This document shows, piece after piece, positions 8,480 through 31,525 of a DNA stretch of 64,000 nucleotides. The position numbers and the translations under genes are program-made. The stretch is taken from assembly GCA_963739455.1 (NCBI GenBank), contig CAVUAK010000001.1:160001-224000 (forward strand). The letters run 5' to 3'. The stretch comes from an uncultured Gemmatimonadales bacterium. Lineage in GTDB: Bacteria > Gemmatimonadota > Gemmatimonadetes > Gemmatimonadales > GWC2-71-9. Every line of letters starts with the position of its first letter. The first letter of the stretch is position 1. The notes beneath the pieces are model-generated. The model saw nothing but the letters and a program-made list of their open reading frames with translations, did not search any database and had not been told where the DNA came from.

Positions 8480-11210
8480 GTGAATCCCACCCTGGACCGT
8501 CTCTCAGCCGCCCTCTCTGACCGCTACCGCCTCGAGCACGAGCTCGGCCAGGGCGGCATGGCCACCGTCTACCTCGCCGAGGACCTGAAGCACAGCCGCA
8601 AGGTCGCCATCAAGGTCCTGCACCCCGAGCTGAGTGCCTTGATTGGTGGCGACCGCTTCCTTACAGAAATCAAGACCACGGCCGGCCTGCAGCATCCCCA
8701 CATTCTCGGCCTCATCGATTCCGGCGCGGTTCCTCTCACGACTCACGCCTCACGCCTCACTGACGACAGTCGACTGTCGACTGATCTCTTGTATTACGTC
8801 ATGCCTTTTGTCTCGGGCGAGTCCCTCCGCAACCGGCTGACCCGCGACAAGCAGCTCCCCATCGACGACGCGCTCCGGCTCGCGAAAGAAGTCGCCAGCG
8901 CCCTCGACTACGCCCACCGCCAGGGCGTCGTCCACCGCGACATCAAGCCGGAGAACATTCTCCTGCAGGACGGCTCCGCCCTCGTAGCCGACTTCGGCAT
9001 CGCCCTCGCCGTGCAGCAGGCCGGCGGCAGCAGGATGACGCAGACCGGCATGTCACTCGGCACCCCCGCCTACATGTCGCCCGAACAGGCCATGGGCGAG
9101 CGCGACATCGGTGCCCGCAGCGATGTGTATGCCTTGGGTGCGATGACGTACGAGATGCTCACCGGCGAGCCTCCCTTCACCGGCCTCAACTCCCAGGCCA
9201 TCGTCGCGAAGGTGCTGACCGAGACTCCACCTCCGCTCCGCCCCAAGCGTCCGACGGTGAGCCCTGCAGTCGAGCACGCGATCCTCACCGCGCTGCAGAA
9301 GCTCCCCGCCGATCGCTATGGAAGCGCGAAGGACTTCGCCGAGGCCCTCGACGGCAAGGGTGGGAACTATGCAGCCACGGTAGTTACCTCACGTCCTCAC
9401 GTCCTCACGTCTTCACGTCAGCGCCTTCCCGTCCTTGCCGCCTTGGTGCTTACGGCCATCCTCGCGGCACTCGCGGGAAGGGCGTCCCGTGCGGAGCCCC
9501 AGCCTCCAGTCGCACGCTACACCACCCTCCTCCCCGCCGACCAGGCCCTCGCCGACACGCGCGGCCATCGCATCGCCATTTCTCCTGACGGGTCCCGCCT
9601 GGTCTACTCCGGGAGCGGGTCCGACGGGTCACAACTCTGGCTCCGGAACCGGAACCAGCTCCGCGCTACGCCGATTCCCGGCGCCAGTCACCCGACCGTG
9701 CCGTTCTTCTCGCCCGATGGCCAGCGCGTCGGGTACACCGTCGAGGGAAACACCGAGATCAAGGTCGTGAGCCTCACTGGTGCGCCGCCCATTACCGTCG
9801 CCGACTCCGGTATTGGCGCCGACGGTGCCACCTGGAGCGAGGACGGCTTCATCTACTTCGACGGGCTCACGGGCGGTGGCACCACCGGCCTCATGCGCGT
9901 GGCACCAAACGGTGCGAAGGTCCTGGAACAGGTCACCACCGTCGACACCGCGCGCCGCGAGCAGGATCACTTCTGGCCCAACGCCTTGCCGAAGGGGCGC
10001 GGGGTGCTCTTCACCATCCAGGAGCGCGGGAACAATGAGGAGCGGAGCCAACTGGCCGTCCTCGACACGAAGACCATGAAGGTGCACACCCTGGTCCAGG
10101 CGCTCACCGGTCGCTACGCACCAGGCGGATACCTCCTGTACGTCACGGCGGCAGGCGAACTGCTCGCGGTGAAGTTCGACCTCGACCGTCTCGCCGTGGT
10201 GGGGGAGCCGTTCGCCATTGCCAGCGGTATTGCGCGACGGTCCTTCGGCGCCATCGACCTCGCCATCTCGATGTCGGGGACCCTCGTGTACCAGGCCGGC
10301 GGGGCCGCGATGGAGCCGAGTCAGGTCGTCTACGTGAGCCGCGACGGCTCGGCCGTCCCGATCGACACGAGTTTCGTGGGTGACTTCCAGACCCTGGCGC
10401 TCTCCCCCGACGGCCGCCGGCTCGCCATCAGCAAGATCGACGGCACCGAGCAGCAGGTCTGGATCAAGCAGCCCCAATGGTCCGCTCAGCAAGCTCAGCT
10501 TCGAGGGAAATCGCAGCATCCGACCCACCTGGTCGCCCGATGGCCAGTACGTGGGATTCATCGGCAACCAGGGCGCCGGTCCCCAGTTCTATCGCAAGCG
10601 CGCCGACGGAATCGGCGCGACGGAACCGGTGCTCACCATGCCGGGCCGCGTCGTCAATGCGGCGACCTGGAGCCGCGACGGGAAGTGGCTCGCGTTCCTC
10701 ACCAACCCTGCCGACCTCTTTGCCCGCCGTACCAGTGGTGACACCTCCCTGGTTTCCCTCGCGAACTCCCGGTTCGAGGAGATCACCCCGTCGATCTCCC
10801 CCGATGGGCGCTGGCTGGCGTACTCGTCCAACGAGTCGGGCGAGTTCGAGATCTACGTGCGTCCCTTTCCCGACGCCGGATCAGCCCGGTGGCAGGTCTC
10901 GACCGGTGGTGGCTTCGAGCCGTTGTGGTCTCCCGACGGCCACGAGTTGCTCTACTGGAGCGGCGGCGAGAACACCACCGGCCAGCTCAACACAGTGGCC
11001 GTGCTCCCGGGGCCAACGTTCATCGCCGGCCAGCGCCACATCCTCCCCATCCAGGGCTCGCCCTACGTCGGCACGCCCGGCTCCTGGGACATCACCCGCG
11101 ACGGCAAGCGCTTTGTCATGATTCGCCAGGGCGCCGGCAAGGGTGATGACCGGGAACTCGTAGTGGTCGAGAACCTTTCCGCCGAACTCACCGCGGAGCA
11201 TGCGCGGTAA
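8480..11210 (+). CDS. Ser/Thr protein kinase K1: kinase-TM-PD40/TolB-like beta-propellers; frameshift near 10470
   Basis: GQGGMATV, VAIK, HRDIKPEN, DFG, GTPAYMSPE; repeated SPDG motifs. Confidence 0.92.
8726..8785 (+). repeat. In-frame heptamer-repeat insert in K1 kinase N-lobe loop
   Basis: GCGGTT CCT CTCACGA CTCACGC CTCACGC CTCAC TGACGACAG TCGACTG TCGACTG. Confidence 0.85.
9387..9418 (+). repeat. Octamer repeat CYTCACGT x4 in K1 linker
   Basis: GTAGTT A then CCTCACGT x3, CTTCACGT. Confidence 0.9.
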
Positions 11211-11214
11211 CCAG

Positions 11215-11250
11215 GTCATTGCGAGGCCTGCGTAGCAGGCCGCGGCAATC
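11215..11250 (+). repeat. REP/RPE-like palindrome
   Basis: GTC ATTGC GA GGCCTGC GTA GCAGGCC GCG GCAAT C. Confidence 0.75.
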
Positions 11251-11367
11251 CCGTTGCATGGCACGGAGCCTTCCTGCGCATTTTCGATGACGTCGTCATT
11301 GCCGGTTCGGGCAACCTTGGGCAATGCCGACTTGCCCACCTTCACCCGCCGAGCGTACGCTATGGCT

Positions 11368-11919
11368 ATGCCTGACGTGGCCCGCTGGACCCGCGCTGAA
11401 GTACTGGCGCTTCCCGACGATGGGATGCGCCACGAGCTCATCGACGGCGAACTGATCGTGACCCCCACCCCACGCGTCAGGCACCAGGAAGGGGTCACAG
11501 CGCTGACGGCGCTCCTCCTGCCATACGTGCACGAGCATCGACTCGGCCGCTTCTTTGCCTTGCCAGCCGATCTCGAGGTGCTTCCCGACCAGCTCACCCA
11601 GCCCGACCTGTTCGTGGTGCCGCCCGGCCCACGGTTCGATCGCTGGGAGGACGCCCCAACACCCACCCTCGTCATCGAAGTCGCCTCGCCATCCACGGCC
11701 CGGTACGACCGCGGCACCAAGCGCCGGTTTTACCAGCGCGGTGGCGTGCCCGAGTACTGGATCGTCGACCTCGACGCCCGGCTTGTGGAACGCTGGCGCC
11801 CCAGCGACGCCAGGCCGGAAGTGCTCGACCACGACATCACCTGGCAGCCCAACCCGGACGTCCCACCGCTCCGCATCGACCTGGATCAATTCTTCGCGCA
11901 GGTCATGGACGCAAGGTAG
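11368..11919 (+). CDS. Uma2/DUF820 family nuclease, copy 2
   Basis: Same length (552 nt) and motifs as copy 1; start chosen by alignment to copy 1. Confidence 0.9.
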   Translation: MPDVARWTRAEVLALPDDGMRHELIDGELIVTPTPRVRHQEGVTALTALLLPYVHEHRLGRFFALPADLEVLPDQLTQPDLFVVPPGPRFDRWEDAPTPTLVIEVASPSTARYDRGTKRRFYQRGGVPEYWIVDLDARLVERWRPSDARPEVLDHDITWQPNPDVPPLRIDLDQFFAQVMDAR

Positions 11920-11942
11920 GAGATCTCCTGCCAACATAAATC

Positions 11943-11979
11943 TTGCCGCTGTGTTACAGGTGCGCTACATTGTAACACA
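11943..11979 (+). promoter_or_regulatory. Putative vapBC promoter with operator inverted repeat, probably leaderless
   Basis: TTGCCG-17 nt-TACATT; TGTGTTACA (11950-58) / TGTAACACA (11971-79); ATG 7 nt after the -10. Confidence 0.7.
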
Positions 11980-12281: not shown

Positions 12282-12688
12282 TGCTCGACACCACCGTGCT
12301 GATCGCCGCCGAGCGACGTGCGCTGCGCTTCGATGACCTGCTTGGCGCCATCTCGACTGAGCCGATCGCCCTGAGCGCCGTCACCGCGTCGGAGTTGCTC
12401 CACGGCTGCCATCGAGCCCGCGACCGCGGTACCCGCTCGCGTCGATTGGCGTTCGTTGAGGGATTGCTGGGCGCGCTCCCGATCCTGCCCTTTGGCCTGG
12501 TCGAGGCGCGCCGGCACTCCGAGCTCTGGGCAGATCTCGCCGGCAGTGGTACCCTCATCGGTGCACACGACATGCTGATCGGCGCCACGGCGCTTGCGCA
12601 TGGCTATGCCCTGGCCACCTTGAATCAGAAGGACTTCGCCCGCATCGACGGCTTGCAGCTCGTCCCCGTTGAGCGCTTCACCACATGA
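12272..12688 (+). CDS. vapC: PIN-domain toxin
   Basis: LDTTVLI, SELLHG, DMLIGATA, TLNQKDF. Confidence 0.9.
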   Translation: MGVMLDTTVLIAAERRALRFDDLLGAISTEPIALSAVTASELLHGCHRARDRGTRSRRLAFVEGLLGALPILPFGLVEARRHSELWADLAGSGTLIGAHDMLIGATALAHGYALATLNQKDFARIDGLQLVPVERFTT

Positions 12689-15457
12689 CCACCGCCGACC
12701 GTCTCACCGCAGCTCTCTCCGACCGCTATCGCCTCGAGCGCGAGCTGGGCCAGGGTGGCATGGCCACCGTCTATCTCGCCGAAGACCTGAAGCACGGTCG
12801 CAAGGTCGCCATCAAGGTCCTGCATCCGGAACTCTCCGCCGTCATCGGCGGCGATCGGTTTCTGGCCGAGATCAAGCTCACCGCAAGCCTTCAACACCCC
12901 CACATCCTCGGCCTGATCGACTCGGGAGCCGTTTCACTAACGCCTCACGCCTCACGACTCACTGACGACAGTCGACTGTCGACTGATCTTCTGTACTACG
13001 TCATGCCCTTCATCGAGGGGGAGACCCTGCGCGGTCGCCTCACCCGCGAGAAGCAGCTCCCCGTCGATGACTCCATCCGCCTCACGAAGGAAGTCGCCGC
13101 CGCCCTCGAGTTCGCCCACAAGCGCGGCATCATCCATCGCGACATCAAGCCCGAGAACATCCTGCTGCAGGACGGTCAGGCCCTCGTCGCCGACTTCGGC
13201 ATCGCCCTCGCCGTGCAGCAGGCCGGCGGCTCCCGCATGACGCAGACCGGCATGTCGCTCGGCACTCCCGCCTACATGTCGCCCGAACAGGCCATGGGCG
13301 AACGCGACATCGGCGCTCGGAGCGACGTGTACGCGCTGGGCGCCATGACCTATGAGATGCTCACCGGCGAGCCGCCCTTCACCGGCCCCAACTCCCAGGC
13401 CATCGTCGCGAAGGTGCTGACGGAAACTCCGCCACCGCTCCGCCCCAAGCGCCCCACCGTGCCACCCGCGGTCGAGCACGCCGTCCTCACGGCCTTGCAG
13501 AAACTCCCCGCCGATCGGTTGGCAGCCGGCGAAGGAGTACGCAGAGGCGCTCGAAGGGAGAGGCAGCAACTATGCATCGACGGTAGTTACTTCACGTCCT
13601 CACGTCCTCACGTCTTCACGTCTCCATCACGTCCTCACGTCCTCACGTCCAGGGCGCGCCCTCGCCTGGAGCGCCGTCGCCGCCCTGATCGCAGCCACCG
13701 CCATGTGGGGCTTCATGCGGCGCGGAACGACGGGGGCGCCCGTAAGGCGCTACGCCCTCGCCCTCCCCGCAAACCAGCCGATGGAATGGAGCCGCATCGG
13801 GACCAACATTGACCTGTCTCCCGATGGCTCACGCTTTGTCTACGTCGGGCCCGGCGAGCAGGGCGGCAGCCTCTGGCTCCGCGATCGTGATCGGCTTGAG
13901 GCGACACCGATTCTCGGCACCTCCAATGCCATCAATCCCCGTTTCTCGCCCGACGGACGACAGATCGTCTTTTCCTCCGGAAGCCTGCTCGAGCTGAAGC
14001 TGGTCGGCGTCGACGGTGGCTCCCCCGTCACGATCGCCCGGGGAGGGTCGGGCGCGAGCGGCGGTGTCGCCTGGAGCGATGATGGCTGGATCTACTTCGA
14101 CGCCGTTCCCGGCCTGAGCCGCGTGCGCCCCAACGGCGATAGCGCACAACTCGTGGTACCGATCGATGCCTCGCGCGGCGAGGCGGGGCAGGCGTGGCCC
14201 GAGGCCGTCCCGGGCGGACGCTGGCTGGTGTATCGCACCCGGAGCAGTAACGCACTCGAGGAGTTTGATATCGGCGTCAGCGACCTGAAGACCGGTGCGC
14301 GCCACGTTCTCACCAGGGGCATCTTCGCCCGACGCATCGGGGCGGGGCTCTTCATCATCGTGCGCGCCGACGGTGTGCTCACTCTCGCCCGCGTCGATGA
14401 GCGCACCATGACGCTGCGCGGATCGCCGGTGCCGGTGCTCGACGGCCTCAAGACCAAGCTGCTGGGCTCGGTCGACCTCACTGTCAGCGGTGGCACCCTG
14501 ATGTATGTGCGGGGCGGATCGAATTCCTACCGGGTGTCTGCCGTCTGGGTCACCCGCGAAGGTGCCGCGAAGCCGATCGAGCCCGCCGTGGTCGTGACAC
14601 CGCCGAACAATCGCGGGCTCGCCCTTTCGCCCGATGGTCGCCGCCTCGTCGTGGACATGGTGGGGCCCAAGTCCACCGACGTCTGGGTGAAGGAGCTGCC
14701 GGCAGGCCCATTCTCCCGGCTCACCTTCGATGGCCTTGCGAACTTTGCGCCTTTCTGGAGCAGCGACGGCAAGTACATCATGTACCTCCTCAACCCCGGG
14801 CAGGGTTCCAATATTGTGCAGGTGTGGCGCAGGAAGGCCGACGGCAGTGCGCCCGCCGAGTCGGTGTTCGCCACCTCCCGTTCGACTATCGAAGCGTCCA
14901 TGTCGAAAGACGGTGAGTGGCTCTTCTATCGGATCAACAACGATTCCACCGGCCCTGACGTCTACGGAATCCGCCTGGGGGGCGACACGACGCCCGTACC
15001 TCTCCTCACCGGTCCAGCCGCCGAGACGAACCCTTCGCTCTCTCCCGACGGTCACTGGCTGGCATATGTGTCGAACGAGTCCGGAACCCTCGAGGTCTAT
15101 GTCCGGCCCTTCCCCCACGTGAACGCGGGACGGTGGCAAGTGTCGATCGGCGGCGGCACCGCGCCCCGCTGGGCACACAGTGGCCGCGAGCTCTTCTTCG
15201 TCTCCGGCACCGAGATGATGATGGCCCCCATCACCACGTCGGGGGGCGCATTCTCTCCCGGCACGCCCCAGAGGCTCTTCACCGGGTTCGGCACCCAGTT
15301 TCTCCAGGGGTTCATCCCCTACTACGACCTGAGCCCCGATGACAGGAACTTCCTCATGATGGGTATTCCTGTCGGCGACAGTACGCGTTCGCAGCTCATC
15401 ACCGTCGAGAACTGGCTTCAGGACGTGAACGCGAAGCTCGCGGCGGCACAACAGTGA
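12685..15457 (+). CDS. Ser/Thr protein kinase K2: kinase-TM-PD40 propellers; frameshift near 13520
   Basis: Kinase motifs in ORF 12685, propeller repeats in ORF 13703. Confidence 0.9.
12928..12987 (+). repeat. In-frame heptamer-repeat insert in K2 kinase loop
   Basis: GCCGTT TCA CTAACGC CTCACGC CTCACGA CTCAC TGACGACAG TCGACTG TCGACTG. Confidence 0.85.
13590..13648 (+). repeat. Octamer repeat (4+3 units) in K2 linker
   Basis: GTAGTT A, CYTCACGT x4, CTC, CATCACGT, CCTCACGT x2. Confidence 0.9.
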
Positions 15458-18203
15458 CCAGCACCGAAGCCCGCCTCACCGCGTCTCTTGCCGATCGCTA
15501 CCGCGTCGAGCGCGAGCTCGGCCAGGGCGGCATGGCCACCGTCTACCTCGCGGAGGACCTCAAGCACAGCCGCAAGGTCGCGATCAAGGTCCTGCATCCC
15601 GAGTTGAGCGCCGTCATCGGCGGCGACCGCTTCCTCACCGAAATCAAGGTCACCGCCAACCTCCAGCACCCGCACATTCTCGGCCTGATCGACTCGGGAG
15701 CTGTTTCACTCACGCCTCACGCCTCACGCCTCACTGACGACAGTCGACTGTCGACTGATCTCTTGTATTACGTCATGCCGTACGTCGTCGGGTGAGTCCC
15801 TCCGCAACCGTCTCGCGCGCGACAAGCAGCTCCCCATCGACGACGCACTCCGGCTTGCGAAGGAAGTCGCCAGCGCGCTCGACTATGCCCATCGCCAGGG
15901 CGTCGTCCACCGCGACATTAAGCCCGAGAACATCCTGTTGCAGGACGGTTCGGCCCTCGTCGCCGACTTCGGCATCGCGCTGGCCGTCCAGCAGGCCGGC
16001 GGCTCTCGCATGACCCAGACCGGCATGTCGCTCGGCACGCCCGCCTACATGTCGCCCGAACAGGCCATGGGCGAACGAGACATCGGTGCGCGCAGCGATG
16101 TGTACGCGCTCGGCGCGATGACCTACGAGATGCTCACCGGGGAACCGCCGTTCACTGGCCTCAACTCCCAGGCCATCGTCGCGAAGGTGCTGACGGAATC
16201 TCCGCGCGCTATGCGCCCTGCGCGCCCTAGCGTCCCCCCGGCAGTGGAACATGCCGTGCTTACGGCGTTGCAAAAGCTCCCCGCCGATCGCTACGGCACA
16301 GCGAAGGGAGTTTGCGGAGGCGCTCGACGGTAAGGGCGGTAACTACGCATCCACCGAGGTTACTTCACGTCCTAACGTCCTCACGTCTTCACGTCTACCT
16401 CACGTCCTCACGTCCTCACGTCCAGGGCGCGCCCTTGCATGGAGCGCTATCGCGGCCGCGATTGCAGCCACGGCTATGTGGGCCTTCGTGTGGCAGGGAA
16501 GGACGGGCGCGCCCGTAAGCCGCCAACGCGTCGTCCTCTGGCAGCATCCCCGCGGCCAGTTCCTCTCGGCCGGCCAGAGCCTGATCGCATCACAGGCCGC
16601 AATCGCCCCGGACGGATCGAGCATCGTCTATACCGATTCCATCGATGGCGTCATCCACCTGATGCGCAAGCTTCGGAGCGAGCGCGAGCCCGTACCGATC
16701 GCTGGCACCGAGGGAGCGGTGTCGCCCTTCTTCTCGCCCGACGGGAAGTGGATCGGATACCTCACGACCGATGGAAGGCTCCGCAAGGTCAGTGTCGACG
16801 GGGGCGGCTCGATCACCCTCGCCGAAGACGCGCAGCGGACCCAGGTCTCGGCCGCATGGCTGGACAATGGGACCATCGTCTACGCCGGCGCGGTGGCGGA
16901 CATGAAGAGGGTCTCCGCCGACGGAGGTCCGAGTTCGCCCATACGGGCCGACAGTAGCCTGCGTCGTCACGCGCTGCTCACGCTCTCTCCCCTTCCGGGC
17001 AGTCGGGGATTCCTTCACACGAGTTGCCCCGGCAACTGCGCCATCGAGTCCGCCGTGTATGTCTTCGATTTCGCGGCCGATAGCTCGCGGTTGCTCGTGC
17101 CGAATGCCGCCGGCGCCTGGTACTCACCCACCGGCTACCTGCTCTACACCGACCGCGCGGGCGGCCTGTATGCTGCGGGGTTCGACCCGAACCGGCTTGT
17201 GATGACGACCCCGGCCGTACCTGTCCTCGAGGACATCGTGCCGACCACCCTGGCGCTGTCAGCATCGGGGAGTGCGCTCTACTCCATCACCGCCGGCAAG
17301 CAGAAGCCATCCGAGCTCATGTGGGTCTCGCGCGATGGCAGCGCAGAGCCGGTCGACTCGGGCTGGCGGGGCGAGTTCGATTACCCCGCCGTCTCCCCCG
17401 ACGGCAAGGCGCTCGCCGTGAGCGTCCGTGATGGCCCAACCCACATCTGGATCTGGCGCGCCGACGGCACCCGGCAGAAGCTGACCCAGGAAGGGACCGT
17501 CAACTGGCGTCCGTCCTGGTCACCGGATGGAAAGTCCATCGCATTTATTTCCAACAAGCGCGGTGGCGGAAACCAGGACGCCTATGACGCCTACCGCATG
17601 CCCGTCGACGGCAGTGCGCCGCCCGACCTGCTCCAGCGGCACACCTTCGGCCTCTGGGAAATCGAGCTCTCGCGCGACGGTCAGTGGCTCATCGTCCGCG
17701 CTGACGAGGCGGTCGGCAGCTCCAACATTCGTGGCCGGCGCCTGGTGGGCGACACGACGCTGCTTCCACTCGTGGTGGACCCGAGCGTCAGCATGCAGGC
17801 GGCCCTGTCACCCGACGAGCATTGGCTCGCATACTCCGCCAACCCGACCGGCCTGATGGAGATCTACGTCGCCCCCTTCCCCTCGATGAAGTCCACCCGG
17901 CTCGTCTCCACCGGCGGCGGCACCGAGCCGCGCTGGGCCCACAGCGGCAAGGAACTGTTCTTCAAGAGCGGTGGCAAGCTGATGGCCGTCGACGTGTTGC
18001 CGGGCGAGGCCTTCACCTTCGGCACGCCCCACGCCCTGTTCCCGCTCACCGGCTATCTCGCAGCCAGGAACCGGCCCGAGTACGACGTGGCGCCCGATGA
18101 TCGCCGCTTCCTGATGATCCGGGTGCCGAAGGAATCGAACGAGGAAGTGGTGTACGTCGAGAACTGGTTTACGGAACTCAGGGCGAAGATGGAGAAGAAG
18201 TAG
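15454..18203 (+). CDS. Ser/Thr protein kinase K3: kinase-TM-PD40 propellers; frameshifts near 15790 and 16307
   Basis: Kinase split over ORFs 15454/15938, sensor in ORF 16251. Confidence 0.9.
15700..15759 (+). repeat. In-frame heptamer-repeat insert in K3 kinase loop
   Basis: GCTGTT TCA CTCACGC x3 CTCAC TGACGACAG TCGACTG x2. Confidence 0.85.
16363..16421 (+). repeat. Octamer repeat (4+3 units) in K3 linker
   Basis: GAGGTT A CTTCACGT CCTAACGT CCTCACGT CTTCACGT CTA CCTCACGT x3. Confidence 0.9.
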
Positions 18204-23400: not shown

Positions 23401-23494
23401 ATTATTCTACGATGGGTTTCTCAAGCTCTGGCAGGACAGTGACCCCGTCTTCAAGCCCATGCTCGACTCGGCCCGAACAGAGCGATCGCCTTGA
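20471..23494 (+). CDS. Ser/Thr protein kinase K5: kinase-TM-TolB-N-like-TPR
   Basis: GTG start overlapping the K4 stop; HRDIKPEN, DFG; IAVLPF; helical repeats. Confidence 0.9.
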   Translation: MTTPERLTAALADRYRIERELGAGGMATVYLAHDLKHNRQVAIKVLRPELAAALGADRFLREIETTANLQHPHILPLFDSGAVSLTDDSRLPTAGSQLLFYVMPFVNGETLRARLARTGPLPLDEAVRYTTEIADALAKAHKAGVVHRDIKPENIFIADGHALVLDFGIAKAVASSHRPEGPPGPKDPANPSGPSILTTLGVSIGTPAYMAPEQVAGDPNIDHRADLYALGLVAYEMLAGGSPYTATTPAQQMAAHIAQAPAPVELKRKDCPPALAALVMRCLAKNPDERWQSADDIVNQLRALDTAPLQRSAARGGQRIAIIAGALLLGLAAVFMFRRNAHPAPSAASANVIAVLPFTVRGGPQFAYLGEGIVDLLSTSLDGAAGLRSVNAHALLGYAGQDASAMSVERAGAVADHFKAGLFVMGDVLEVGGKLRLSASLFDRANEAKPLAEATVDGDPGDVTSLVDLLATRLAADRSAEGGARLTRTAAVTTSSIPALKAYMEGEQAYRAGQYVAATKAFQEAVTADTGFALAFHRLGMAQERMAWADDSRRSAELAFLHSDRLSAHDRRFLEALLTMRRGHAGEAEQQFRAIAQSWPDDAEAWYQLGELSFHGNPLRGQSFTDSRTAFSQALFLDPGDLGALYHLMRIAARDGNQPLLDSLSARFYKLSPEGDRTLELRALQALATGDSVAVDSVMAAFGRAPDGTLAIGMWSLAVFAQSLPSASRLALLMTEPARPRGVRAQGHVYLAYLALAQGRLALARTELAAASALGGSEAPLVDAWFNTLPFVPATRGELDASRARLARWDATDTTLLSTQPSAFFSGHNGVRPILKLYVLGLLDIRRGATAEAMKGVEQLQGMGAATEGPPLALELAEGLRAQMALAKAQPDSALASLEALHLEGWYELTFMSPFYGGALERFTRAKLLATQGRNNDALAWYRGLGENSTPELVFLGPAMLAQARIQEKLGHPKEAALFYDGFLKLWQDSDPVFKPMLDSARTERSP
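20714..20761 (+). repeat. In-frame heptamer-derived insert in K5 kinase loop
   Basis: GCTGTT TCA CTCA CTGACGA CTCACGA CTGCCGA CTGCTGG. Confidence 0.8.
21003..21031 (+). repeat. REP-like hairpin in frame in K5 activation segment
   Basis: GTCCT GA GGGCCC TCC GGGCCC GA AGGAC. Confidence 0.7.
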
Positions 23495-26247
23495 CTAGCA
23501 CAGAAGCCCGCCTTTCATCCGCCCTGAGCGACCGATACCGCCTCGAGCGCGAGCTCGGCCAGGGCGGCATGGCCACCGTCTACCTGGCGGAAGACCTCAA
23601 GCACGGCCGCAAGGTCGCGATCAAGGTCCTCCATCCGGAGTTGAGCGCTGTTATCGGTGGCGATCGGTTCCTCGCCGAGATCAAGGTCACCGCCAGCCTG
23701 CAGCACCCCCACATCCTCGGCCTCATCGACTCCGGGGCAGTTCCTCTGAACCCTGAACTCTCAACCCCTAACCCTTCTGACGACTCACGACTGCCGACTG
23801 CCGGCTTGCTCTACTACGTCATGCCCTTTGTCGCGGGCGAATCCCTCCGCGCCCGCCTGACTCGCGAGAAGCAGCTCCCCGTTGACGATGCGATCCGTCT
23901 CGCGAAGGAAGTCGCCAACGCGCTCGACTACGCCCACCGCCACGGCGTCGTCCACCGCGACATCAAGCCGGAGAACATCCTGCTCCAGGAAGGCGCCGCC
24001 CTGGTCGCCGACTTCGGCATCGCGTTGGCGGTCCAGCAGGCCGGTGGCAGCCGCATGACCCAGACCGGCATGTCACTCGGTACGCCGGCGTACATGTCGC
24101 CCGAACAGGCAATGGGCGAACGCGAGATCGGCCCCCGCAGCGATGTGTATGCCCTGGGCGCCATGACGTACGAGATGCTCGCCGGCGAGCCCCCCTTCAT
24201 GGGCCCCAACTCCCAGGCCATCGTCGCGAAGGTGCTGACGGAGCAGCCACCGCTGTTGCGCCCCAAGCGTCCGCTGGTTTCTTCCGCCGTCGAAAACGCG
24301 ATCCTGACTGCCTTGCAGAAGTTGCCGGCCGATCGCTACGGCTCGGCGAAGGACTTCGCCGACGCCCTCGACGGAAAGGGCGGCACTTACGCCGCCACGG
24401 TGGCACTCGGTTCCACCCGCCCTACCCGCCCTACCCGCCTTACCCGCCCCGTCATGCTGGCCGCGCTCGCCCTGATCGCCACCGCCGCGGGCGTCGCCGG
24501 CTGGTTCATGCGAGGAGGCCCGCGCGCCTCGCCCGTAAGCCGCTTTTTTCTCTCCTTCCCCCCCGGCCAGGCTCCACGGGGCGAGATGCTCATCACCCAG
24601 GACGGATCGCGCCTCGTCTACGCCGGACCCGGCGACAGTGGCGTGCAGCTCTGGGTGAAGGAGCGCGCCAACAGCATCGCCACGCCGCTCGCCGGCACCA
24701 ACGGCGCGCAGGGACTCGGCCTCTCGCCCGATGGCAGCAAGGTCGCGTTCGTGCAGCACGAGCAGCTCATGTCGATACCGCTGGCAGGGGGACAGGTGTT
24801 CAAGGTCGCCGACAGCGCCTTCGCCACCGGCGCGGCCTGGCTCGACGACGGTACCATCGTGTACACCTCGCTCTCGTTCAACCTGATGCGCGTGAAGGAC
24901 ACGGGAGAGCGGCCGACGGTACTCTGGCACTCGAAGAATTCCAACAAGGCATCGGTGCTTCCGAGGCCGCTGCCGCAGGCGCGCGGCGTCATCTTCACCG
25001 ATTGCAGCTTCAACTGTGATCCCCAAGCCGACCTCTGGGTGTACGACGCGACGTCGGGTGCGACACGACTCCTGGTGCCGGGCGCGATAGGCGGATGGTA
25101 TCTCTCCTCGGGCCACCTCGCCTACGTGAAGCTGGATGGCGAACTGGTTGCTGCTCCCTTCGACGTGGCCAAGTTGGAGTTCAGGGGACCTCCCGTTCAA
25201 CTCATGGACGGGATCGGGCTCCAATTCGTGGTGCCGGTGCTGTCGTTCTCCGACGCTGGCACACTGGTGGCGCAAGTCGGGGCCGCGCGCCGCACCGATA
25301 TCCGGGGCCAGTACGAAATGGTGTGGATCGACCGCGCTGGAACACAGGAACCGGTCGACACCAGCTGGAAGTTCAAGCTCAGCATCTCCAACCTCAACCA
25401 AGGCTGGGCGCTTTCTCCCGACGGCACCCAGCTCGCCATCGGCCTCAATACCAAGTCAGGCGATGACATCTGGATCAAGCGATTGCCGACGGGCCCGCTC
25501 TCGCGCCTCACCTTTGACTCATTGCCCGAACAACGCCCCCACTGGACACCCGATGGCAGGTCCGTCACCTACATCGTCGATGGAACCGGCGGCCTGAAGG
25601 AACGCCGAGCCGATGGGACCGGCAGTGAGAAGGCACTCGTGTCGCCTCGCGTGGAGCAGGTGAACGATGCCGCCTGGTCACACGACGGCAAGTGGCTCGT
25701 GGCCCGGATCGGCGGCCTGAGTGGACTGCGCGGACCTCGCAACATCTACGCATGGCGGCCCGGCGTGGACAGTGGCCCCCTCCCGCTGCTCGCCAATCCG
25801 GCGTACGACGAAGCCGCCATGTCGCTCTCGCCCGATGACCGCTGGATCGCATACGAGTCCGACGAAACCGGGAAGAACGAGGTCTACATTCGACCTTTCC
25901 CCAACGTTGACGACGGCAAGTGGCAGGTCTCGAGCAACGGCGGACAGGCACCCCTCTGGGCGCATGGCGGGAAGGAATTGTTCTACGTCGACGGGAACCG
26001 GAGCATGGTCGCCGTCCCCGTGACCGGGGGCGCCTCCATCACGCTCGGGAGCGCCAAGACGCTCTTTCCGCTCCCGGGGAACATCCTCCTCGCTCCCGAT
26101 GAGCATTACACCCCGTTCGACGTCTCGCCCGACGACCGGCGCTTTATCATGGTGCGCGAGGTCGGTGGAAAGTCCCGCGACGACGTGGCGGTGCTGCTGG
26201 TCGAAAACTGGTTTGCTGATGTGAAGTCGAAGCTCGGTGCGAAATGA
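23491..26247 (+). CDS. Ser/Thr protein kinase K6: kinase-TM-PD40 propellers
   Basis: Intact 918-aa ORF with all kinase motifs and SPD repeats. Confidence 0.93.
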   Translation: MTSTEARLSSALSDRYRLERELGQGGMATVYLAEDLKHGRKVAIKVLHPELSAVIGGDRFLAEIKVTASLQHPHILGLIDSGAVPLNPELSTPNPSDDSRLPTAGLLYYVMPFVAGESLRARLTREKQLPVDDAIRLAKEVANALDYAHRHGVVHRDIKPENILLQEGAALVADFGIALAVQQAGGSRMTQTGMSLGTPAYMSPEQAMGEREIGPRSDVYALGAMTYEMLAGEPPFMGPNSQAIVAKVLTEQPPLLRPKRPLVSSAVENAILTALQKLPADRYGSAKDFADALDGKGGTYAATVALGSTRPTRPTRLTRPVMLAALALIATAAGVAGWFMRGGPRASPVSRFFLSFPPGQAPRGEMLITQDGSRLVYAGPGDSGVQLWVKERANSIATPLAGTNGAQGLGLSPDGSKVAFVQHEQLMSIPLAGGQVFKVADSAFATGAAWLDDGTIVYTSLSFNLMRVKDTGERPTVLWHSKNSNKASVLPRPLPQARGVIFTDCSFNCDPQADLWVYDATSGATRLLVPGAIGGWYLSSGHLAYVKLDGELVAAPFDVAKLEFRGPPVQLMDGIGLQFVVPVLSFSDAGTLVAQVGAARRTDIRGQYEMVWIDRAGTQEPVDTSWKFKLSISNLNQGWALSPDGTQLAIGLNTKSGDDIWIKRLPTGPLSRLTFDSLPEQRPHWTPDGRSVTYIVDGTGGLKERRADGTGSEKALVSPRVEQVNDAAWSHDGKWLVARIGGLSGLRGPRNIYAWRPGVDSGPLPLLANPAYDEAAMSLSPDDRWIAYESDETGKNEVYIRPFPNVDDGKWQVSSNGGQAPLWAHGGKELFYVDGNRSMVAVPVTGGASITLGSAKTLFPLPGNILLAPDEHYTPFDVSPDDRRFIMVREVGGKSRDDVAVLLVENWFADVKSKLGAK
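23737..23805 (+). repeat. In-frame heptamer-repeat insert in K6 kinase loop
   Basis: GCAGTT CCT CTGAACC CTGAACT CTCAACC CCTAACC CTT CTGACGA CTCACGA CTGCCGA CTGCCGG. Confidence 0.85.
24415..24450 (+). repeat. Nonamer repeat ACCCGCCYT x4 in K6 linker
   Basis: TCGGTT CC then four units, encoding TRPTRPTRLTRP. Confidence 0.9.
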
Positions 26248-28913
26248 CCCCCGACCGCCTCGCCAAAGCCCTCGCTGACCGCTATCGTATCATTCGCGAG
26301 CTCGGCCAGGGCGGCATGGCCACCGTCTATCTCGCCGAGGACCTCAAGCACCACCGCCAGGTCGCCATCAAGGTTCTCCGTCCCGAACTCGCCGCTGCAC
26401 TCGGCGCTGATCGCTTCCTCCGCGAAATCGAGACGACGGCCAACCTTCGCCACCCCCACATCCTCCCGTTGTTTGACAGTGGCGCGCTGCCGACTGACGC
26501 ACGACTGCCGACTGCCGACTCACGACTCCTGTTCTACGTCATGCCCTTCGTCGATGGCGAAAGCCTCCGCTCCCGCCTCGACCGCGAAAAGCAGCTCCCC
26601 ATCGATGACGCACTCCAGATCGCTCGCGAAGTCGCCGATGCCCTGAGCTACGCCCACGCTCACGGCGTCATTCATCGCGACATCAAGCCGGAGAACATCC
26701 TCCTCGAGAGCGGGCACGCCGTCGTCGCCGACTTCGGCATCGCCAGGGCCATCAACGCTGCTTCTGGTGACAAGCTGACCGAGACCGGCATGGCCATCGG
26801 CACCGTGACGTACATGAGTCCCGAACAGGCCGCCGGTCAGCAGGACCTCGACGGCCGGAGTGATCTCTACGCCCTCGGTTGCGTGCTTTACGAAATGCTC
26901 GCGGGACAGGCCCCGTTCACCGGGCCCACCGTCGAGAGCATCGTGCACCAGCACCTGGTCGCGAACGCGCCGCCGATCACGCAGCTGCGCCCCGCCGTGC
27001 CGGCCGACGTCGCTGCGGCCCTGCAGCGTGCGCTTGCCAAGACCCCCGCCGATCGTTTCAACCCGGTGGCGCAGTTTGCCAGCGCCCTGCAGCCGCGCAC
27101 CATCGCGGCGACCGCACCGATCACGACGAGTGCTCCCCGCAATCGCGCGCTGCTGATCGGTGCATCGCTCACGGCGCTGGCAGCCCTGGGCTTCCTCGTT
27201 CTTCGCGCGCGGAACGCAGCAGCCAATGCGCTCCCGGTCATCGGCAAGACCATTCAGGTGACGCGCGCCCCCGGGCTCGAGGTTGACCCCGCCCTGTCGC
27301 CCGATGGCGAGAACATCGCCTATGCCGCCGGTCCCCCCACTGCCATGCAGGTCTACGTTCGCCAGGTCACTGGTGGTCGTGAGGTGGCACTCACCAGTGA
27401 CACGACCGGGAATTTCCGCTCGCCTCGCTGGTCGCCCGACGGATCCCAGATCGCGTATCAGTCCAATGACGGCATTTATCTCGTGCCGGCGCTCGGCGGG
27501 GTTCCACGCCGGGTGGCCCGCGCCGACAAGTCCATGCTTTTCCACGGCCAGGAATCAGTGACGCCACTGTCCGGGCTCGACTGGTCGCCCGATGGGTCAC
27601 GGTTGGCCTGGACCGCTGGCTACAACAGCGACGTAGTCACGGTGCTGACGCTCGCGAGCGGCGGGACGGTGACACTCCCCGCGCCCGCCGCAGCCTTCTC
27701 ACCGGCGTGGTCCCCTGATGGTCGCAGCATCGCCGTTTCGTCTGGTGACCCTGCATTCGTCTTCGGTACCGGCTATTTCGGGAACGTCGCCACGTCCTCT
27801 CTCTGGATGGTGCATCTCGACGGAACAGCGCCGACACCGGTAACGGCTGACAGTTCCCTGAATGTGGGGCCCCAGTGGTCACCCGACGGGCGCGCGCTGT
27901 TCTGGGTCTCGGATCGCGAGGGCAGCCGCGACATCTATCGCCAGCGCATCGGTGCGAATGGCGCCGCGCAGGGCACGCCCCAGCGCCTCACCACCGGAAC
28001 CGACGCGCACGGGATCAGTCTGAGCCGGAAGGGCGGACGCATGGCGTATTCCAGGCTCACGACCTACTCCAGCATCTGGTCCATTCCCGTGCCGGCCCGG
28101 GGCCCAGTCTCCATTCGGGGCGCGACGCGCATCACGACCGGGAACGAGACCATCGAGGACGTGGACGTCTCCCCTGATGGCCGCTGGCTGGCTTTTGACT
28201 CCGACCGGGGCGGAAACCCCGACCTGTACATCATGCCCGCGGCTGGTGGCGACGCACGCCAGATCACCACCGATCCAGCCGGCGACTTCAGCCCCACGTG
28301 GTCACCTGACGGACGCAGGATCCTTTTTCACTCACTCCGCAATGGCAGCCGCGACATCTACACCGTAGACACCGACGGCACGGGGCTCACCCGCTGGACC
28401 TCGTCCCCGGACGAGGAACTCGATTCCGGATGGTTCCCGGATGGCGAGACGATCCTGTTCACCGTGTTCGAACCTGGAAGGGCGGGATTCGGCATCCTGC
28501 ACCTGGTGCCCGATGCGAAGGTCAGCTTCCTGCCAGTGACTCAGGGCGACTACGGCATCTCCACGCCTGACGGCAGGGGCATCGTGTATCACGGCGCTGA
28601 CGGGTTGCATCTGTTGAAGGTGGCTGGCGGGGCCGATGCCCTCCTCGTCTCCAACGCCACCGAAAATGCCGAAGTGGTCTACGCAGACTGGTCACCAGAT
28701 GGGTCGACGCTCTACTTCCTGGCCCGGGCTCGGCAGGGCTGGTCGATCAGGTCCATGCCGGCGGCGGGTGGCGCGAGTACCGTACTGGTAGACTTCGACG
28801 ACCCCGCCCGCCAGCATACCAAGTACGGCTTCACCACCGATGGGAAGATCTTCTACTTCACGGTCGGCACACCCGAGAGCGACATCTGGGTCGCCAACCT
28901 GACGAAGCCTTGA
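26244..28913 (+). CDS. Ser/Thr protein kinase K7: kinase-TM-TolB/PD40 propellers
   Basis: Intact 889-aa ORF; WSPDG repeats. Confidence 0.93.
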   Translation: MTPDRLAKALADRYRIIRELGQGGMATVYLAEDLKHHRQVAIKVLRPELAAALGADRFLREIETTANLRHPHILPLFDSGALPTDARLPTADSRLLFYVMPFVDGESLRSRLDREKQLPIDDALQIAREVADALSYAHAHGVIHRDIKPENILLESGHAVVADFGIARAINAASGDKLTETGMAIGTVTYMSPEQAAGQQDLDGRSDLYALGCVLYEMLAGQAPFTGPTVESIVHQHLVANAPPITQLRPAVPADVAAALQRALAKTPADRFNPVAQFASALQPRTIAATAPITTSAPRNRALLIGASLTALAALGFLVLRARNAAANALPVIGKTIQVTRAPGLEVDPALSPDGENIAYAAGPPTAMQVYVRQVTGGREVALTSDTTGNFRSPRWSPDGSQIAYQSNDGIYLVPALGGVPRRVARADKSMLFHGQESVTPLSGLDWSPDGSRLAWTAGYNSDVVTVLTLASGGTVTLPAPAAAFSPAWSPDGRSIAVSSGDPAFVFGTGYFGNVATSSLWMVHLDGTAPTPVTADSSLNVGPQWSPDGRALFWVSDREGSRDIYRQRIGANGAAQGTPQRLTTGTDAHGISLSRKGGRMAYSRLTTYSSIWSIPVPARGPVSIRGATRITTGNETIEDVDVSPDGRWLAFDSDRGGNPDLYIMPAAGGDARQITTDPAGDFSPTWSPDGRRILFHSLRNGSRDIYTVDTDGTGLTRWTSSPDEELDSGWFPDGETILFTVFEPGRAGFGILHLVPDAKVSFLPVTQGDYGISTPDGRGIVYHGADGLHLLKVAGGADALLVSNATENAEVVYADWSPDGSTLYFLARARQGWSIRSMPAAGGASTVLVDFDDPARQHTKYGFTTDGKIFYFTVGTPESDIWVANLTKP
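26484..26525 (+). repeat. In-frame heptamer-repeat insert in K7 kinase loop
   Basis: CTGCCGA CTGACG CACGA CTGCCGA CTGCCGA CTCACGA. Confidence 0.85.
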
Positions 28914-31525
28914 GCAATATCGAAGCGCGCCTCGCCGCATCCCTGTCCGACCGCTACCGCATCGAGCGCGAACTCGGTGCCGGCGGCATGGCCACGGTCT
29001 ACCTCGCCGAGGATCTCAAGCACGGCCGCAAGGTCGCGATCAAGGTGCTCCGCCCTGAACTCTCCGCCGTGATCGGCAGTGAGCGCTTCCTCTCCGAGAT
29101 CAAGACCACGGCCGGCCTCCAGCACCCCCACATTCTGGGACTCATCGATTCCGGGTCAGTTCCTCTGAACTCTGGACCCTCAACTCCTAACCCTTCTGAC
29201 GACTCACGACTGCCGACTGCCGACTTGCTCTACTACGTCATGCCCTTCATCGAGGGCGAGACCCTTCGGGCTCGCCTCGAGCGCGAGAAGCAACTCCCAA
29301 TCGACGACGCCATTCGCCTCACCCGGGAAGTCGCCTCCGCCCTCGAGTTCGCCCACAAGCGCGGCATCGTCCATCGCGACATCAAGCCCGAGAACATCCT
29401 CCTGCAGGACGGCCAGGCCCTCGTCGCCGACTTCGGCATCGCACTCGCCACCAGTCAAGCCGGCTCTCGCATGACCCAGACCGGCATGTCGATCGGCACG
29501 CCCGCCTACATGTCGCCCGAACAGGCCATGGGCGATCGCGACATCGGTCCCCGCAGCGATGTCTACGCACTCGGTGCCCTGGCATACGAGATGCTGACTG
29601 GTGAACCGCCCTTCACCGGCCTCAACTCCCAGTCCATCGTCGCCAAGGTGCTGACAGAGCAACCACCGCAGTTGCGCCTGCGGCGTCCGATGGTTTCCCC
29701 CGCCGTTGAAGCCGCGGTGCTTACCGCTCTTCAAAAGCTCCCCGCCGATCGCTTCGCCAGCGCGAAGGATTTCGCCGACGCCCTTTCAAGTCCTCACGTC
29801 CTCACGCCCTCACGTCATCCTGAGCGCAGCGAAGGACCTCCCCGCCCTCCCCGCCATCCCCGCCTCGGACTCATCGCGGCCATCGCACTCATCTCCACCG
29901 CCGCGGGGTTCGCAGGTTGGTTCATGCTCAGAAGCACGCGCGCAGCGCCCGCCGCGCAAAGCGACCCCCACTCCCGCACCATCGCCGTCCTCCCCTTTCG
30001 CAACATCTCCCAGGACACCGCGCAGCAGTACTTCAGCGCCGGCATGACCGAGGAGATCGCCTCGCAACTCTCGCGCGTCGGTGCACTGCATGTGCTCGGC
30101 AGCTCTGCCACCGCGCAGTATGAGGGAAAGCCCGATCGCCTGCAGCGCATGGGCAGCGAACTGGGTGTTGGAAGCGTCGTGGAAGGGAGCGTGCGCCTGG
30201 CCGGTGACCAGGTGCGCATCGGGGTGGAGCTGACGGACGTGAAGACCGGCCAAAGGCTCTGGTCGGAACAGTATGATCGCAAGATCGACGATGTCTTCGC
30301 CGTGCAGGGCGACGTCGCACGAAACGTCTCGTCCGCCCTTCAGGCCACGCTCACCCCCATGGAAATGGGCCGCGTTGGTCATGTCGCCACCAGCAACACG
30401 GAGGCATACCAGCTCTATCTCCGCGCCCTCTCCGAGAAGCCGTTCCTGCGCGCCGGCAACGTCGCCCAGGCGGCGTTGCTGCGGCAGGCGATCCAGCTTG
30501 ATACCACCTTCGCCTCGGCGTGGGCCATGCTGGCCCGCAACAGGATGTTTCGCGGAGTCGCCGGCGAGCCTTCGTACATCGATTCGGGGTTCGTCGCGGC
30601 ACGAAAGGCCATCGCGCTCGATCCCGATGAGGCCCTCGGATACTTCGCCCTGGGAGATCTCCTGTCCAGCCGGCAGCAGCTCTCCGAGGCGCGTCGCTCG
30701 TACCTCAAGGCACTGGAACTGAATCCTGGCCACTTCGGCGCCATGGCCGATCTCGCCAATGTCTACTGGGCACTGGGTCGTTTCGACGAGGCACTCGACT
30801 GGGCCCTTCGCTCCCAGCAGCTCGACCCCAACCACCCGCACGGGCCGTATCACACCGGGCTGCCGTTGCTGGGCCTGGGCGATGACTCGGCCACGGCCCG
30901 GTATCTCCTCGCCGCGGAGCAGAAGTTCCCGGATCAACCACGGATTCAGGGCCTGCTGGTCTGGTTGGATATGCGACGCGGGCGGAATGCCCCTGCCACC
31001 GAGCGCGCGAAGCAACTCGTGCTGAACGAGCCCGACAACACCGAGGTTCCGCCCATCCGGGCCGAGCTGGCGGTGTTCACCAATGATCCCGACGCGGAAG
31101 GACTCATCGATCCCCTCGCCCGGAAGGACCCCGAGGCCGCCGGCCAGATGTTTCCCGAGTCCCTGCGATCGATGTACGCTCTCACCTTGAAGCGCCAGGG
31201 CAAGCAAGGTGAAGCGTCTGCGCTGTGGGAAGAATCCTCGAAGGCTGCACAGCGGAGGGTCGCCGATGGCCAGGAAGGCTCCAACGCGCCGATGGAGCTC
31301 GCGGCCATCAGCGCCATCGAGGGCCGCACCACCGAAGCACTCGACTGGCTGGAAAAGGGCTACCGCGCCGGCTGGAGGGACGCCGTGCTCCTCGAAATGG
31401 ATCCCTTCTTCGCATCGGTGCGACAGGAACCGCGCTACAAGGCCGTCGTTGCCTCGATCCAGCAGGACTTGAAGGAGATGCACGCTCGCGCCGCGGCGGC
31501 CCATCCCGATATTTTCACTCCATGA
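28910..31525 (+). CDS. Ser/Thr protein kinase K8: kinase-TM-TolB-N-like-TPR
   Basis: Intact 871-aa ORF; IAVLPFRN, YFSAGMTEE, TPR-like helices. Confidence 0.93.
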   Translation: MSNIEARLAASLSDRYRIERELGAGGMATVYLAEDLKHGRKVAIKVLRPELSAVIGSERFLSEIKTTAGLQHPHILGLIDSGSVPLNSGPSTPNPSDDSRLPTADLLYYVMPFIEGETLRARLEREKQLPIDDAIRLTREVASALEFAHKRGIVHRDIKPENILLQDGQALVADFGIALATSQAGSRMTQTGMSIGTPAYMSPEQAMGDRDIGPRSDVYALGALAYEMLTGEPPFTGLNSQSIVAKVLTEQPPQLRLRRPMVSPAVEAAVLTALQKLPADRFASAKDFADALSSPHVLTPSRHPERSEGPPRPPRHPRLGLIAAIALISTAAGFAGWFMLRSTRAAPAAQSDPHSRTIAVLPFRNISQDTAQQYFSAGMTEEIASQLSRVGALHVLGSSATAQYEGKPDRLQRMGSELGVGSVVEGSVRLAGDQVRIGVELTDVKTGQRLWSEQYDRKIDDVFAVQGDVARNVSSALQATLTPMEMGRVGHVATSNTEAYQLYLRALSEKPFLRAGNVAQAALLRQAIQLDTTFASAWAMLARNRMFRGVAGEPSYIDSGFVAARKAIALDPDEALGYFALGDLLSSRQQLSEARRSYLKALELNPGHFGAMADLANVYWALGRFDEALDWALRSQQLDPNHPHGPYHTGLPLLGLGDDSATARYLLAAEQKFPDQPRIQGLLVWLDMRRGRNAPATERAKQLVLNEPDNTEVPPIRAELAVFTNDPDAEGLIDPLARKDPEAAGQMFPESLRSMYALTLKRQGKQGEASALWEESSKAAQRRVADGQEGSNAPMELAAISAIEGRTTEALDWLEKGYRAGWRDAVLLEMDPFFASVRQEPRYKAVVASIQQDLKEMHARAAAAHPDIFTP
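29156..29224 (+). repeat. In-frame heptamer-repeat insert in K8 kinase loop
   Basis: TCAGTT CCT CTGAACT CTGGACC CTCAACT CCTAACC CTT CTGACGA CTCACGA CTGCCGA x2. Confidence 0.85.
29785..29865 (+). repeat. Composite in-frame insert in K8 linker: octamer x4, REP-like hairpin, nonamer x3
   Basis: TTCAAGTC CTCACGTC CTCACGCC CTCACGTC / ATCCTGAGCGCAGCGAAGGACCT / CCCCGCCCT CCCCGCCAT CCCCGCCT. Confidence 0.88.

Follow-up and report, generated by a model that had tools for sequence, protein, structure and literature searches.

Tandem-Repeat-Filled Beta4-Beta5 Loops in Hanks-Type Kinases of an Uncultured Gemmatimonadales Bacterium: Probable Footprints of Dispersed Repeat Families

Introduction

The window analyzed here, 64,000 nucleotides of contig CAVUAK010000001.1 from an uncultured Gemmatimonadales bacterium (assembly GCA_963739455.1), contains eight co-oriented genes for Hanks-type kinases (K1 to K8) at positions 8480-31525. 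In seven of these kinases one turn of the N-lobe is occupied by residues that short tandem repeats encode. How did repeat DNA come to fill the same loop in so many kinases, and does the resulting peptide do anything for the kinase? A preliminary description of the locus had read the loops as layered, successive insertions at a hotspot between strands beta4 and beta5, adding peptides that might be neutral or might provide new phosphorylation or docking sites. This interpretation survives in part: the beta4-beta5 site, the hotspot and the layering stand, whereas separate insertions, a 21-nt step, simple insertion and the phosphorylation or docking sites do not. The loops are probably tolerated footprints of dispersed families of 7- to 9-nt tandem repeats, most likely neutral and probably amplified among paralogs by gene conversion.

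Dispersed heptamer tandem repeats are known from cyanobacteria as short tandemly repeated repetitive (STRR) sequences, and Elhai et al. reportedly treated small cyanobacterial repeats in 2008. In the following, G000 is the genome under study (3.6 Mb, 84% complete, 67% G+C), other G-numbers are genomes of relatives, and C1 and C3 are contigs of G000; the window corresponds to C1:160001-224000. Elsewhere, dispersed heptamers include GGGAATC in Xanthomonas and GGGGA(C/T)T in Nostoc (accessible text of PMC4692102) and TAACTGA in Beggiatoaceae, for whose spreading the accessible part of the report states that "no mechanism is evident" (PMC4679880). The G000 unit list contains neither GGGAATC nor TAACTGA; the repeats are of the same kind as the published heptamers, but the units are different.

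Results

Loop length was measured between the motifs DSG and LL(Y/F)YVMP. The seven loops are:

K1 loop, 8726-8785, plus strand: 60 nt, 20 aa; mosaic of heptamers with a K6/K8-like 5' junction and a K2/K3-like 3' part; contains a 14-nt palindrome
K2 loop, 12928-12987, plus strand: 60 nt, 20 aa; 95% identity to the K3 loop
K3 loop, 15700-15759, plus strand: 60 nt, 20 aa; left part identical to that of K5 except for three additional CTCACGC units
K5 loop, 20714-20761, plus strand: 48 nt, 16 aa
K6 loop, 23737-23805, plus strand: 69 nt, 23 aa; CTGAACC/CTCAACC-type units 5' of a GACT-type core
K7 loop, 26484-26525, plus strand: 42 nt, 14 aa
K8 loop, 29156-29224, plus strand: 69 nt, 23 aa; 91% identity to the K6 loop

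The lengths (14-23 aa) and positions first reported for these loops were reproduced, CTGACG is present in all seven, and the layered build-up from several repeat families is borne out. Once three CTCACGC units are taken out, what remains of the left part of the K3 loop matches the K5 loop exactly over the initial 21 nt of the latter. This 21-nt difference, once proposed as the frame-preserving step, applies to the left halves of K3 and K5 only, and their right halves differ. When loop length was compared with 21 nt, the net insert lengths modulo 21 fell into seven classes among 18 loops, and a general 21-nt rule is rejected. K4 and K9, taken at first as short-loop controls, do have short turns, but both belong to other subfamilies without the DSG...YVMP frame; in addition, K9 is encoded on the minus strand, beyond the array. 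Proper controls come from the subfamily of the long-loop kinases, in which the normal turn has 4 aa (12 nt). Of the 35 genes of this type in G000, 15 keep this short turn. Heptamer loops are present in 18, all of which map to C1:91-305 kb, and the remaining two carry long loops of another sort.

The array kinases retain the Gly-rich loop, the VAIK Lys, the alphaC Glu, HRDxKPxN, DFG and an APE-like motif, as expected of Hanks-type kinases, and the nearest solved structure is PknB (Foldseek E 4e-24, 34% identity). In the structure predicted for K6 the insert forms a coil, with pLDDT <50 at residues 90-102, that connects strand 80-85 with strand 105-112, and PknB has four extra residues at the matching place of the alignment; the site is therefore the beta4-beta5 turn, as had been proposed. 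In the first two loop positions, Glu-Ala gives way to small or beta-branched residues, which extend beta4. The change is not a simple insertion, since the native four residues are replaced, and same-length overwriting occurs in other genes (see below).

Orthologs, defined by their sensor domain, often lack the repeats. The short turn is found in both K1 orthologs, all four K3 orthologs, one ortholog of K2 (another has a different long loop), the G006 ortholog of K5 (that of G008 has a palindrome resembling repetitive extragenic palindromes, REP), one ortholog of K7 (two others carry CCCACGA units, another heptamer) and one of K8 (another has a different heptamer); no K6 ortholog was found in the sample of relatives. 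Paralogs that are not orthologous nevertheless have loop alleles in common: one 60-nt allele is found in K1, K2, K3 and the gene at C1:103533 (89-95% identity), another in K6, K8 and C1:262063 (86-91%), and the K7 loop is 93% identical to that of the distant paralog C1:271432, with 67% identity in the kinase DNA downstream. Loop identity between non-orthologous paralogs (90-95%) mostly exceeds the identity of the flanks (76-92%). The paralogs with a common loop also have non-repeat junction bases in common that are confined to kinases (GTTTCACTMAC, 4/4 genome matches), in K1 the left junction is of the K6/K8 type and the right half of the K3 type, and the independently assembled G008 has a loop with the same peptide as K2 and K3. 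The alleles common to non-orthologous paralogs, together with the many short orthologs, point to gene conversion, and conversion between the conserved N-lobes would be the simplest reading of this allele sharing. Seven separate insertions, as initially supposed, are at odds with the common alleles.

The kinases of the relatives are a partial sample chosen by similarity to K1; together with those of G000 they number 130, of which 45 have long loops. An extension of at least four residues is present at the beta4-beta5 turn in 42 of 116 aligned kinases, as against two in the activation segment and one elsewhere in the domain. At the DNA level, 7-mers occur 37 times in the turn, 8-mers 37 times and 9-mers seven times in the post-kinase linker, and the sensor domains have almost none. 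Eleven apparent REP matches upstream of the loop were discarded because they are codons of the conserved LHPEL motif. In a kinase tree calculated without the loops (a quick tree of 117 of the 130 rows, the other 13 being frameshifted or too short), the long state undergoes 22 changes, of which at least 12 are forced by well-supported branches, versus 35 changes for shuffled labels. The recurrence claimed for the hotspot is thus confirmed. The RecA DNA tree (19 genomes) is too weak for ordering gains and losses.

A pattern scan of species genomes from the phylum, a set that overlaps the sample of relatives, recovered at least 116 long loops under at least 83 labels. Among the matches listed, 115 loops are in frame, one is out of frame and one holds a stop; 16 have period 7, 24 have period 8 and nine are REP-like, and codon shuffles give 0.4 and 0.3. 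Of the loci in named records with the same kinase motif, again among the matches listed, 113 of 116 belong to Gemmatimonadota. The beta4-beta5 turn is a real hotspot, which holds 7-mers, 8-mers or palindromes across the phylum.

The repeats in the loops belong to a genome-wide pool. G000 has 234 tandem arrays of period 7, 114 of period 8 and 146 of period 9. According to a rough codon model, which misses some kinase loops, 205 of the 234 period-7 arrays are intergenic or at a gene edge and 17 are in frame, eight of the latter in kinase loops. Long hairpins result where arrays pair as inverted copies, as many do; such hairpin elements also contain the loop core CTCACTGACGAC (23 copies in G000, eight of them in kinase loops). 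Tandem doublets of loop units number 8-65 per genome, versus 0 for reversed controls, for 10 of 11 units; for CTGTCGA the numbers are 2 versus 1. GACT-type matches are frequent where kinases carry GACT-type loops (124 in G000, 108 in G008, 40 in G007 and 22 in G003) and number 0 in G002, G005, G006 and G011, whose 19 sampled kinases all have short turns. AATCGCCC has 266, 189 and 113 matches in the three of three genomes with such loops and 0 in two others, and AAGCGGGR has 107 and 10 matches in the two of two genomes with such loops and 0 in three others. The loop units are usually those that are abundant in the host genome.

The products that persist are open. In the frame where the unit gives TGA, CTGACGA accounts for 0 of 18 units, versus 16 of 38 in the other frames, and Cys-coding units are absent from that frame too; Cys makes up 1 of 706 and 2 of 1531 loop residues, the second set being among the matches listed. 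The kinase cores are under purifying selection (dN/dS 0.06-0.26 in 10 pairs).

Five single-copy genes of G000 with in-frame arrays were compared between genomes: a DnaE-type polymerase, IleRS, TrpE, HslU and Fmt (the last two named from sequence). Site 1 of the polymerase has three different families among four readable genomes, and site 2 is extended in five of nine genomes, by several units. In IleRS (C1:2221166) a segment of 34 residues has equal length in seven genomes, three of which have it partly overwritten, each by its own genome's unit; in TrpE (C1:357162) heptamers overwrite the sequence at constant length in two of five genomes. The overwriting heptamers of IleRS and TrpE differ between congeneric genomes, and the 9-mer sites of HslU and Fmt are also variable. 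Because single-copy genes show these changes too, replacement and unit turnover need no paralogs; paralogy only amplifies them. The in-frame repeats of the polymerase lie at several sites (C1:1073639, 1074345 and 1076173-1076500). The gene adjoins a RecA-like gene, and the two putatively belong to an imuA-imuB-dnaE2 cassette. The polymerase was not found at E 1e-100 in G002, G005 and G011, which are also without PF05635 matches.

Intervening sequences of rRNA carry an open reading frame (ORF) for a four-helix bundle between inverted arms. A comparable layout occurs in G000, where five PF05635 genes each lie between inverted arms, G-rich upstream and C-rich downstream, of one repeat family, with a different 7-, 8- or 9-mer family for each gene:

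C1:2352934-2353455: PF05635 gene (at C1:2353092) with GACT units and the kinase-loop core; frameshifted in the assembly
C1:368059: PF05635 gene
C1:348511: PF05635 gene
C1:1832099: PF05635 gene
C3:177739: PF05635 gene

PF05635 (TIGR02436) is the 23S rRNA intervening-sequence protein, an Avd-like four-helix bundle (accessible text of PMC10053308). Arrays flank 5/5 of the PF05635 genes in G000, 20/28 in the relatives and 16/17 in five other genomes, compared with 3.8% of random G000 sites. The clades of the PF05635 proteins match the arm units, with a GACT clade in G000, G003 and G008. Homologous sites may have a cassette, lack it or hold another in its place, and the flanks of three cassettes align as protein-coding DNA. 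The site of a G009 cassette holds a different palindromic element in G000 (C1:1266722-1266891).

Discussion

The process that we envisage would start from several lineage-specific repeat families in the genome, mostly intergenic and often in inverted pairs, as they are seen in G000. Arrays recur in coding DNA, and they would be written there by insertion or same-length overwriting, their units turning over with the current pool. Selection keeps only tolerated products with an open frame, which in these kinases are those at the beta4-beta5 turn and in the post-kinase linker. The conserved flanks of some 30 paralogous N-lobes would then let gene conversion copy and recombine loop alleles, and conversion probably restores short turns too. 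The loop peptides themselves would be disordered and nearly neutral.

The weakest step concerns the origin of the units, for which repeat-armed PF05635 cassettes, as master copy or mobiliser, are the most likely candidate source. In this extension, which we regard as possible but doubtful, each repeat family has a cognate PF05635 (Avd-like) cassette, the inverted arms serve as its master copy, and with help from the protein the repair enzymes of the host write the unit elsewhere. If so, the kinase turn, with its dozens of copies per genome, would record which cassettes were active in a lineage, and the cassette system would be a reverse-transcriptase-free source of new protein loops. A match between loop unit and cassette arm names the PF05635 protein that is the candidate for a test.

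Several observations weigh against this account, some against the loops as repeat footprints and others against the role of the cassettes. In the frame test, the 18 units cannot be treated as independent of one another. A common repeat pool, rather than conversion, could partly raise loop identity, and the identity just downstream of the loop is uncorrelated with loop identity (rho 0.09). Of the long loops in the phylum scan, 69 of 116 among the matches listed have neither periodicity nor palindrome, and some of these repeat-less loops recur as similar peptides in several genomes, so that natively long turns exist in other subfamilies. GGACGGTC has 57 matches in one genome, but the counts are only 3, 1 and 0 for three others whose loops are related. 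Despite having 7- and 8-mer families of its own, G006 is short-turned in 11/11 sampled kinases. In G001, 6/13 loops are long and mostly decayed, with a single GACT match, and therefore the order of gain and loss cannot be set. Candidate mobilisers other than PF05635 were rejected: the RAYT transposase (PF01797) was not found in G000 (84% complete) and is present in 2/21 genomes, and reverse transcriptase (PF00078) was found in 0/21, including G000. In the same 84% complete genome no cassette was found for the CTGAACC/CTCAACC units of K6 and K8 or for the abundant CTGTTCC family, nor was one found for the loop units of G026, G027, one of G023, one of G025, and G007. The three GACT-armed cassettes are syntenic and thus represent a single inherited locus. 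Cause and effect could also run the other way, with the cassettes carried by the repeats as cargo. To our knowledge, the four-helix bundle has no catalytic activity.

One alternative to tolerated footprints is that the inserts are selected modules, either phosphorylation or docking sites or wedges at the back-to-back N-lobe dimer surface that prevent cross-activation among about 30 paralogs. The loop begins two residues past an Asp that aligns with Asp76 of PknB; the accessible texts report that PknB D76A/L33D disrupts the back-to-back interface (PMC13434768) and that an interface pocket lies between alphaC and beta4/beta5 (10.64898/2026.10.08.757607). However, Leu33 of PknB aligns with a His here. 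The predicted homodimer of the K6 kinase domain (score 0.01, mark 0.42) counts for neither side. The loops in the window are 30% Ser+Thr, and the eIF2alpha kinase HRI has a Ser-rich beta4-beta5 insert (accessible text of 10.64898/2026.07.06.735516), but Ser/Thr richness arises here because GACT-type units are translated, and the Ser+Thr fraction ranges from 0.15 to 0.29 by repeat class. Among orthologs, loop sequence, length and composition are not conserved and four-residue turns persist, and the nearly identical peptides of K1-K3 cannot tell these kinases apart. Since no peptide is conserved, a phosphorylation or docking role is unsupported; the neutral option that was offered beside it fits best, and selection for modules is unlikely. 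For annotators, Ser/Thr/Pro-rich kinase inserts of this kind are repeat DNA, and not evidence of regulatory motifs.

The loops might also have arisen without any mobile system, by slippage of the native codons in place (GCC GAC, GAA GCG GG, GCG GAC GG) and subsequent drift. By eye, several of the invading units resemble Glu-Ala-Asp-Gly codons, and K3 and K5 differ by a clean step of three units. Slippage leaves unexplained, however, that the loop units equal genome-wide families, that REP-like palindromes and whole hairpins occur in the loop, and that orthologous arrays carry each genome's own unit, which makes it quite improbable as the source. Independent insertion of every long loop into a sequence-specific target, without transfer between paralogs, would agree with the many unrelated families at one site and with the recurrent sites in single-copy genes that have no paralog donors. 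The 60-nt allele that K1-K3 have in common with C1:103533 and the kinase-only junction bases of non-orthologous paralogs speak against it, and we consider it highly improbable. That heptamer tracts form a contingency locus switching the kinases on and off by 7-nt slips is barely credible: 2/18 G000 loops are out of frame (62 and 70 nt), as is 1/116 loops phylum-wide among the matches listed, where another 1/116 has a stop, but the two G000 loops are displaced by +2 and +1 rather than by 7, in keeping with the assembly background, and the tracts are short mosaics rather than long perfect runs. As hard to credit is an ancestral, protein-conserved long loop with short turns as losses, or loops that are assembly artefacts, because 8/8 sampled kinases from other genera have four-residue turns, loop contents are unrelated among orthologs and the K2/K3 peptide recurs in G008, even though PknB is extended at this place and some orthogroups have their first loop residues in common across species, so that a few long loops predate the species. 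The refuting case named in the preliminary description, a loop that is ancestral, conserved as protein and without 7-nt periodicity, therefore does not hold.

The repeats of the kinase loops belong with the dispersed short tandem repeats, as a variant of that kind and not as a new signalling module. With the heptamers of Xanthomonas, Nostoc and Beggiatoaceae, so far as the accessible texts describe them, they have in common 7-nt units in few copies, dispersed and mostly non-coding, convergent inverted pairs and a spreading mechanism that is not known; unlike those, families of 7, 8 and 9 nt coexist here and recur in frame at one loop throughout the phylum, coding sequence is overwritten, and PF05635 genes are tied in. 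The P6b stem-loop of the Nostoc tRNA-Leu intron (accessible text of PMC4476775) is likewise one tolerant site that is repeatedly and independently replaced by another 7-nt class, but it concerns an RNA structure and two classes, whereas here the loop is translated, with many families, a frame filter and spread from paralog to paralog. Rickettsia palindromic elements (accessible text of PMC10969869) are also short repeats in frame inside working proteins; they are palindromes of about 150 bp with a conserved peptide in unrelated genes, in contrast to mosaics of 36-69 nt without conserved peptide at one recurrent site, and on these grounds that class was rejected. The tandem repeats of Borgs (accessible text of PMC9879509) resemble the loops as fast-evolving, disordered segments at conserved hotspots with different units per genome, but there they are perfect amino-acid repeats that arise locally, and here 7- to 8-nt units from a genome-wide pool. 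PknB of Mycobacterium tuberculosis and the eIF2alpha kinases have the same fold and motifs, and their beta4-beta5 turn tolerates extra residues (four in PknB, about 140 in HRI); in the accessible texts these extensions are fixed in their families without a stated origin from repeat DNA.

The PF05635 ORFs between inverted arms (5/5 in G000) resemble an ORF-bearing rRNA intervening sequence but differ from it and from Avd in that the arms are tandem 7-9-mers which match dispersed repeats and partly the kinase loops, and reverse transcriptase is absent from the G000 search results. A diversity-generating retroelement is rejected because PF00078 was found in none of the 21 genomes, and the PF05635 proteins score 35.7 and 29.6 with the Avd model, far under its cut-off of 80; a REP/REPIN-RAYT system is rejected because PF01797 was not found in G000 (84% complete). 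The papers searched, mostly open-access ones, contained nothing on loops of Gemmatimonadota kinases being filled by repeats or on PF05635 genes having tandem-repeat arms.

In this kinase family each genome provides dozens of homologous targets, whose empty state is known (12 nt), and alignments of these kinases let insertion, overwriting, unit turnover and spread between paralogs be read. The turn is a natural recorder of the spreading of 7- to 9-nt repeats, whose mechanism in bacteria is an open question (accessible part of PMC4679880).

Other Features of the Window

The kinase genes are:

K1, 8480..11210, plus strand: Hanks-type Ser/Thr kinase with membrane segment and PD40/TolB-like propeller; one frameshift near 10470-10480, probably assembly
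K2, 12685..15457, plus strand: kinase-propeller; frameshift between kinase domain and propeller
K3, 15454..18203, plus strand: kinase-propeller; frameshifts at about 15790, just past the loop, and near 16295, neither inside heptamers
K4, 18204..20474, plus strand: kinase-TPR of another subfamily; short turn without repeat
K5, 20471..23494, plus strand: kinase-TPR; GTG start overlaps the K4 stop
K6, 23491..26247, plus strand: kinase-propeller, intact
K7, 26244..28913, plus strand: kinase-propeller, intact
K8, 28910..31525, plus strand: kinase-TPR, intact
K9, 32712..34445, minus strand: short-turned kinase from another subfamily, not part of the array

The C-terminal parts of the array kinases are PD40 propellers or TPR arrays, and from K2 to K8 neighbouring stops and starts overlap or abut. 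The frameshifts of K1-K3 all lie outside the loops, and their density is about that of non-kinase genes of the assembly (10 per 22 kb and 11 per 24 kb, with certain overlaps counted twice); they are therefore probably assembly errors. A sulfatase-like gene (named from sequence; 3509-5587) and a radical-SAM gene (6637-7860) are frameshifted too, which fits assembly indels. K1 and K2 are separated by Uma2, RHH and PIN genes. Two similar Uma2-family genes are placed on either side of K1 (11362-12688 and about 7860-8418), and the RHH-PIN (VapBC-like) pair is directly 5' of K2.

The linker between kinase and membrane segment is a second hotspot, with 8-mers, 9-mers and REP-like palindromes, whereas the beta4-beta5 turn of the genus has 7-mers and palindromes. 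Inserts outside the turn are:

K1 linker array, 9387..9419, plus strand: 8-mer (CCTCACGT); second hotspot
K2 linker array, 13592..13650, plus strand: 8-mer
K3 linker array, 16365..16423, plus strand: 8-mer
K5 activation-segment insert, 20999..21046, plus strand: 16 aa, palindromic, with REP-like family resemblance; a shorter form is in the G006 ortholog
K6 linker array, 24415..24449, plus strand: 9-mer
K8 linker composite, 29786..29893, plus strand: 8-mer array, REP-like palindrome (29816-29836) and 9-mer array, all in frame

In G008, REP-like palindromes cluster in or just upstream of kinase genes (15/43 matches on contigs C176, C182, C184, C112 and C34). Further arrays of the same families lie in the window at 32601-32719, 35041-35096, 36516-36551, 41323-41397 and 51596-51650; the further arrays include eleven TCTTCCC units followed by 8-mers, as well as 7-, 8- and 9-mer arrays. 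A 24-nt repeat in about four copies, outside the 7-9-mer families, is located at 54922-55028.

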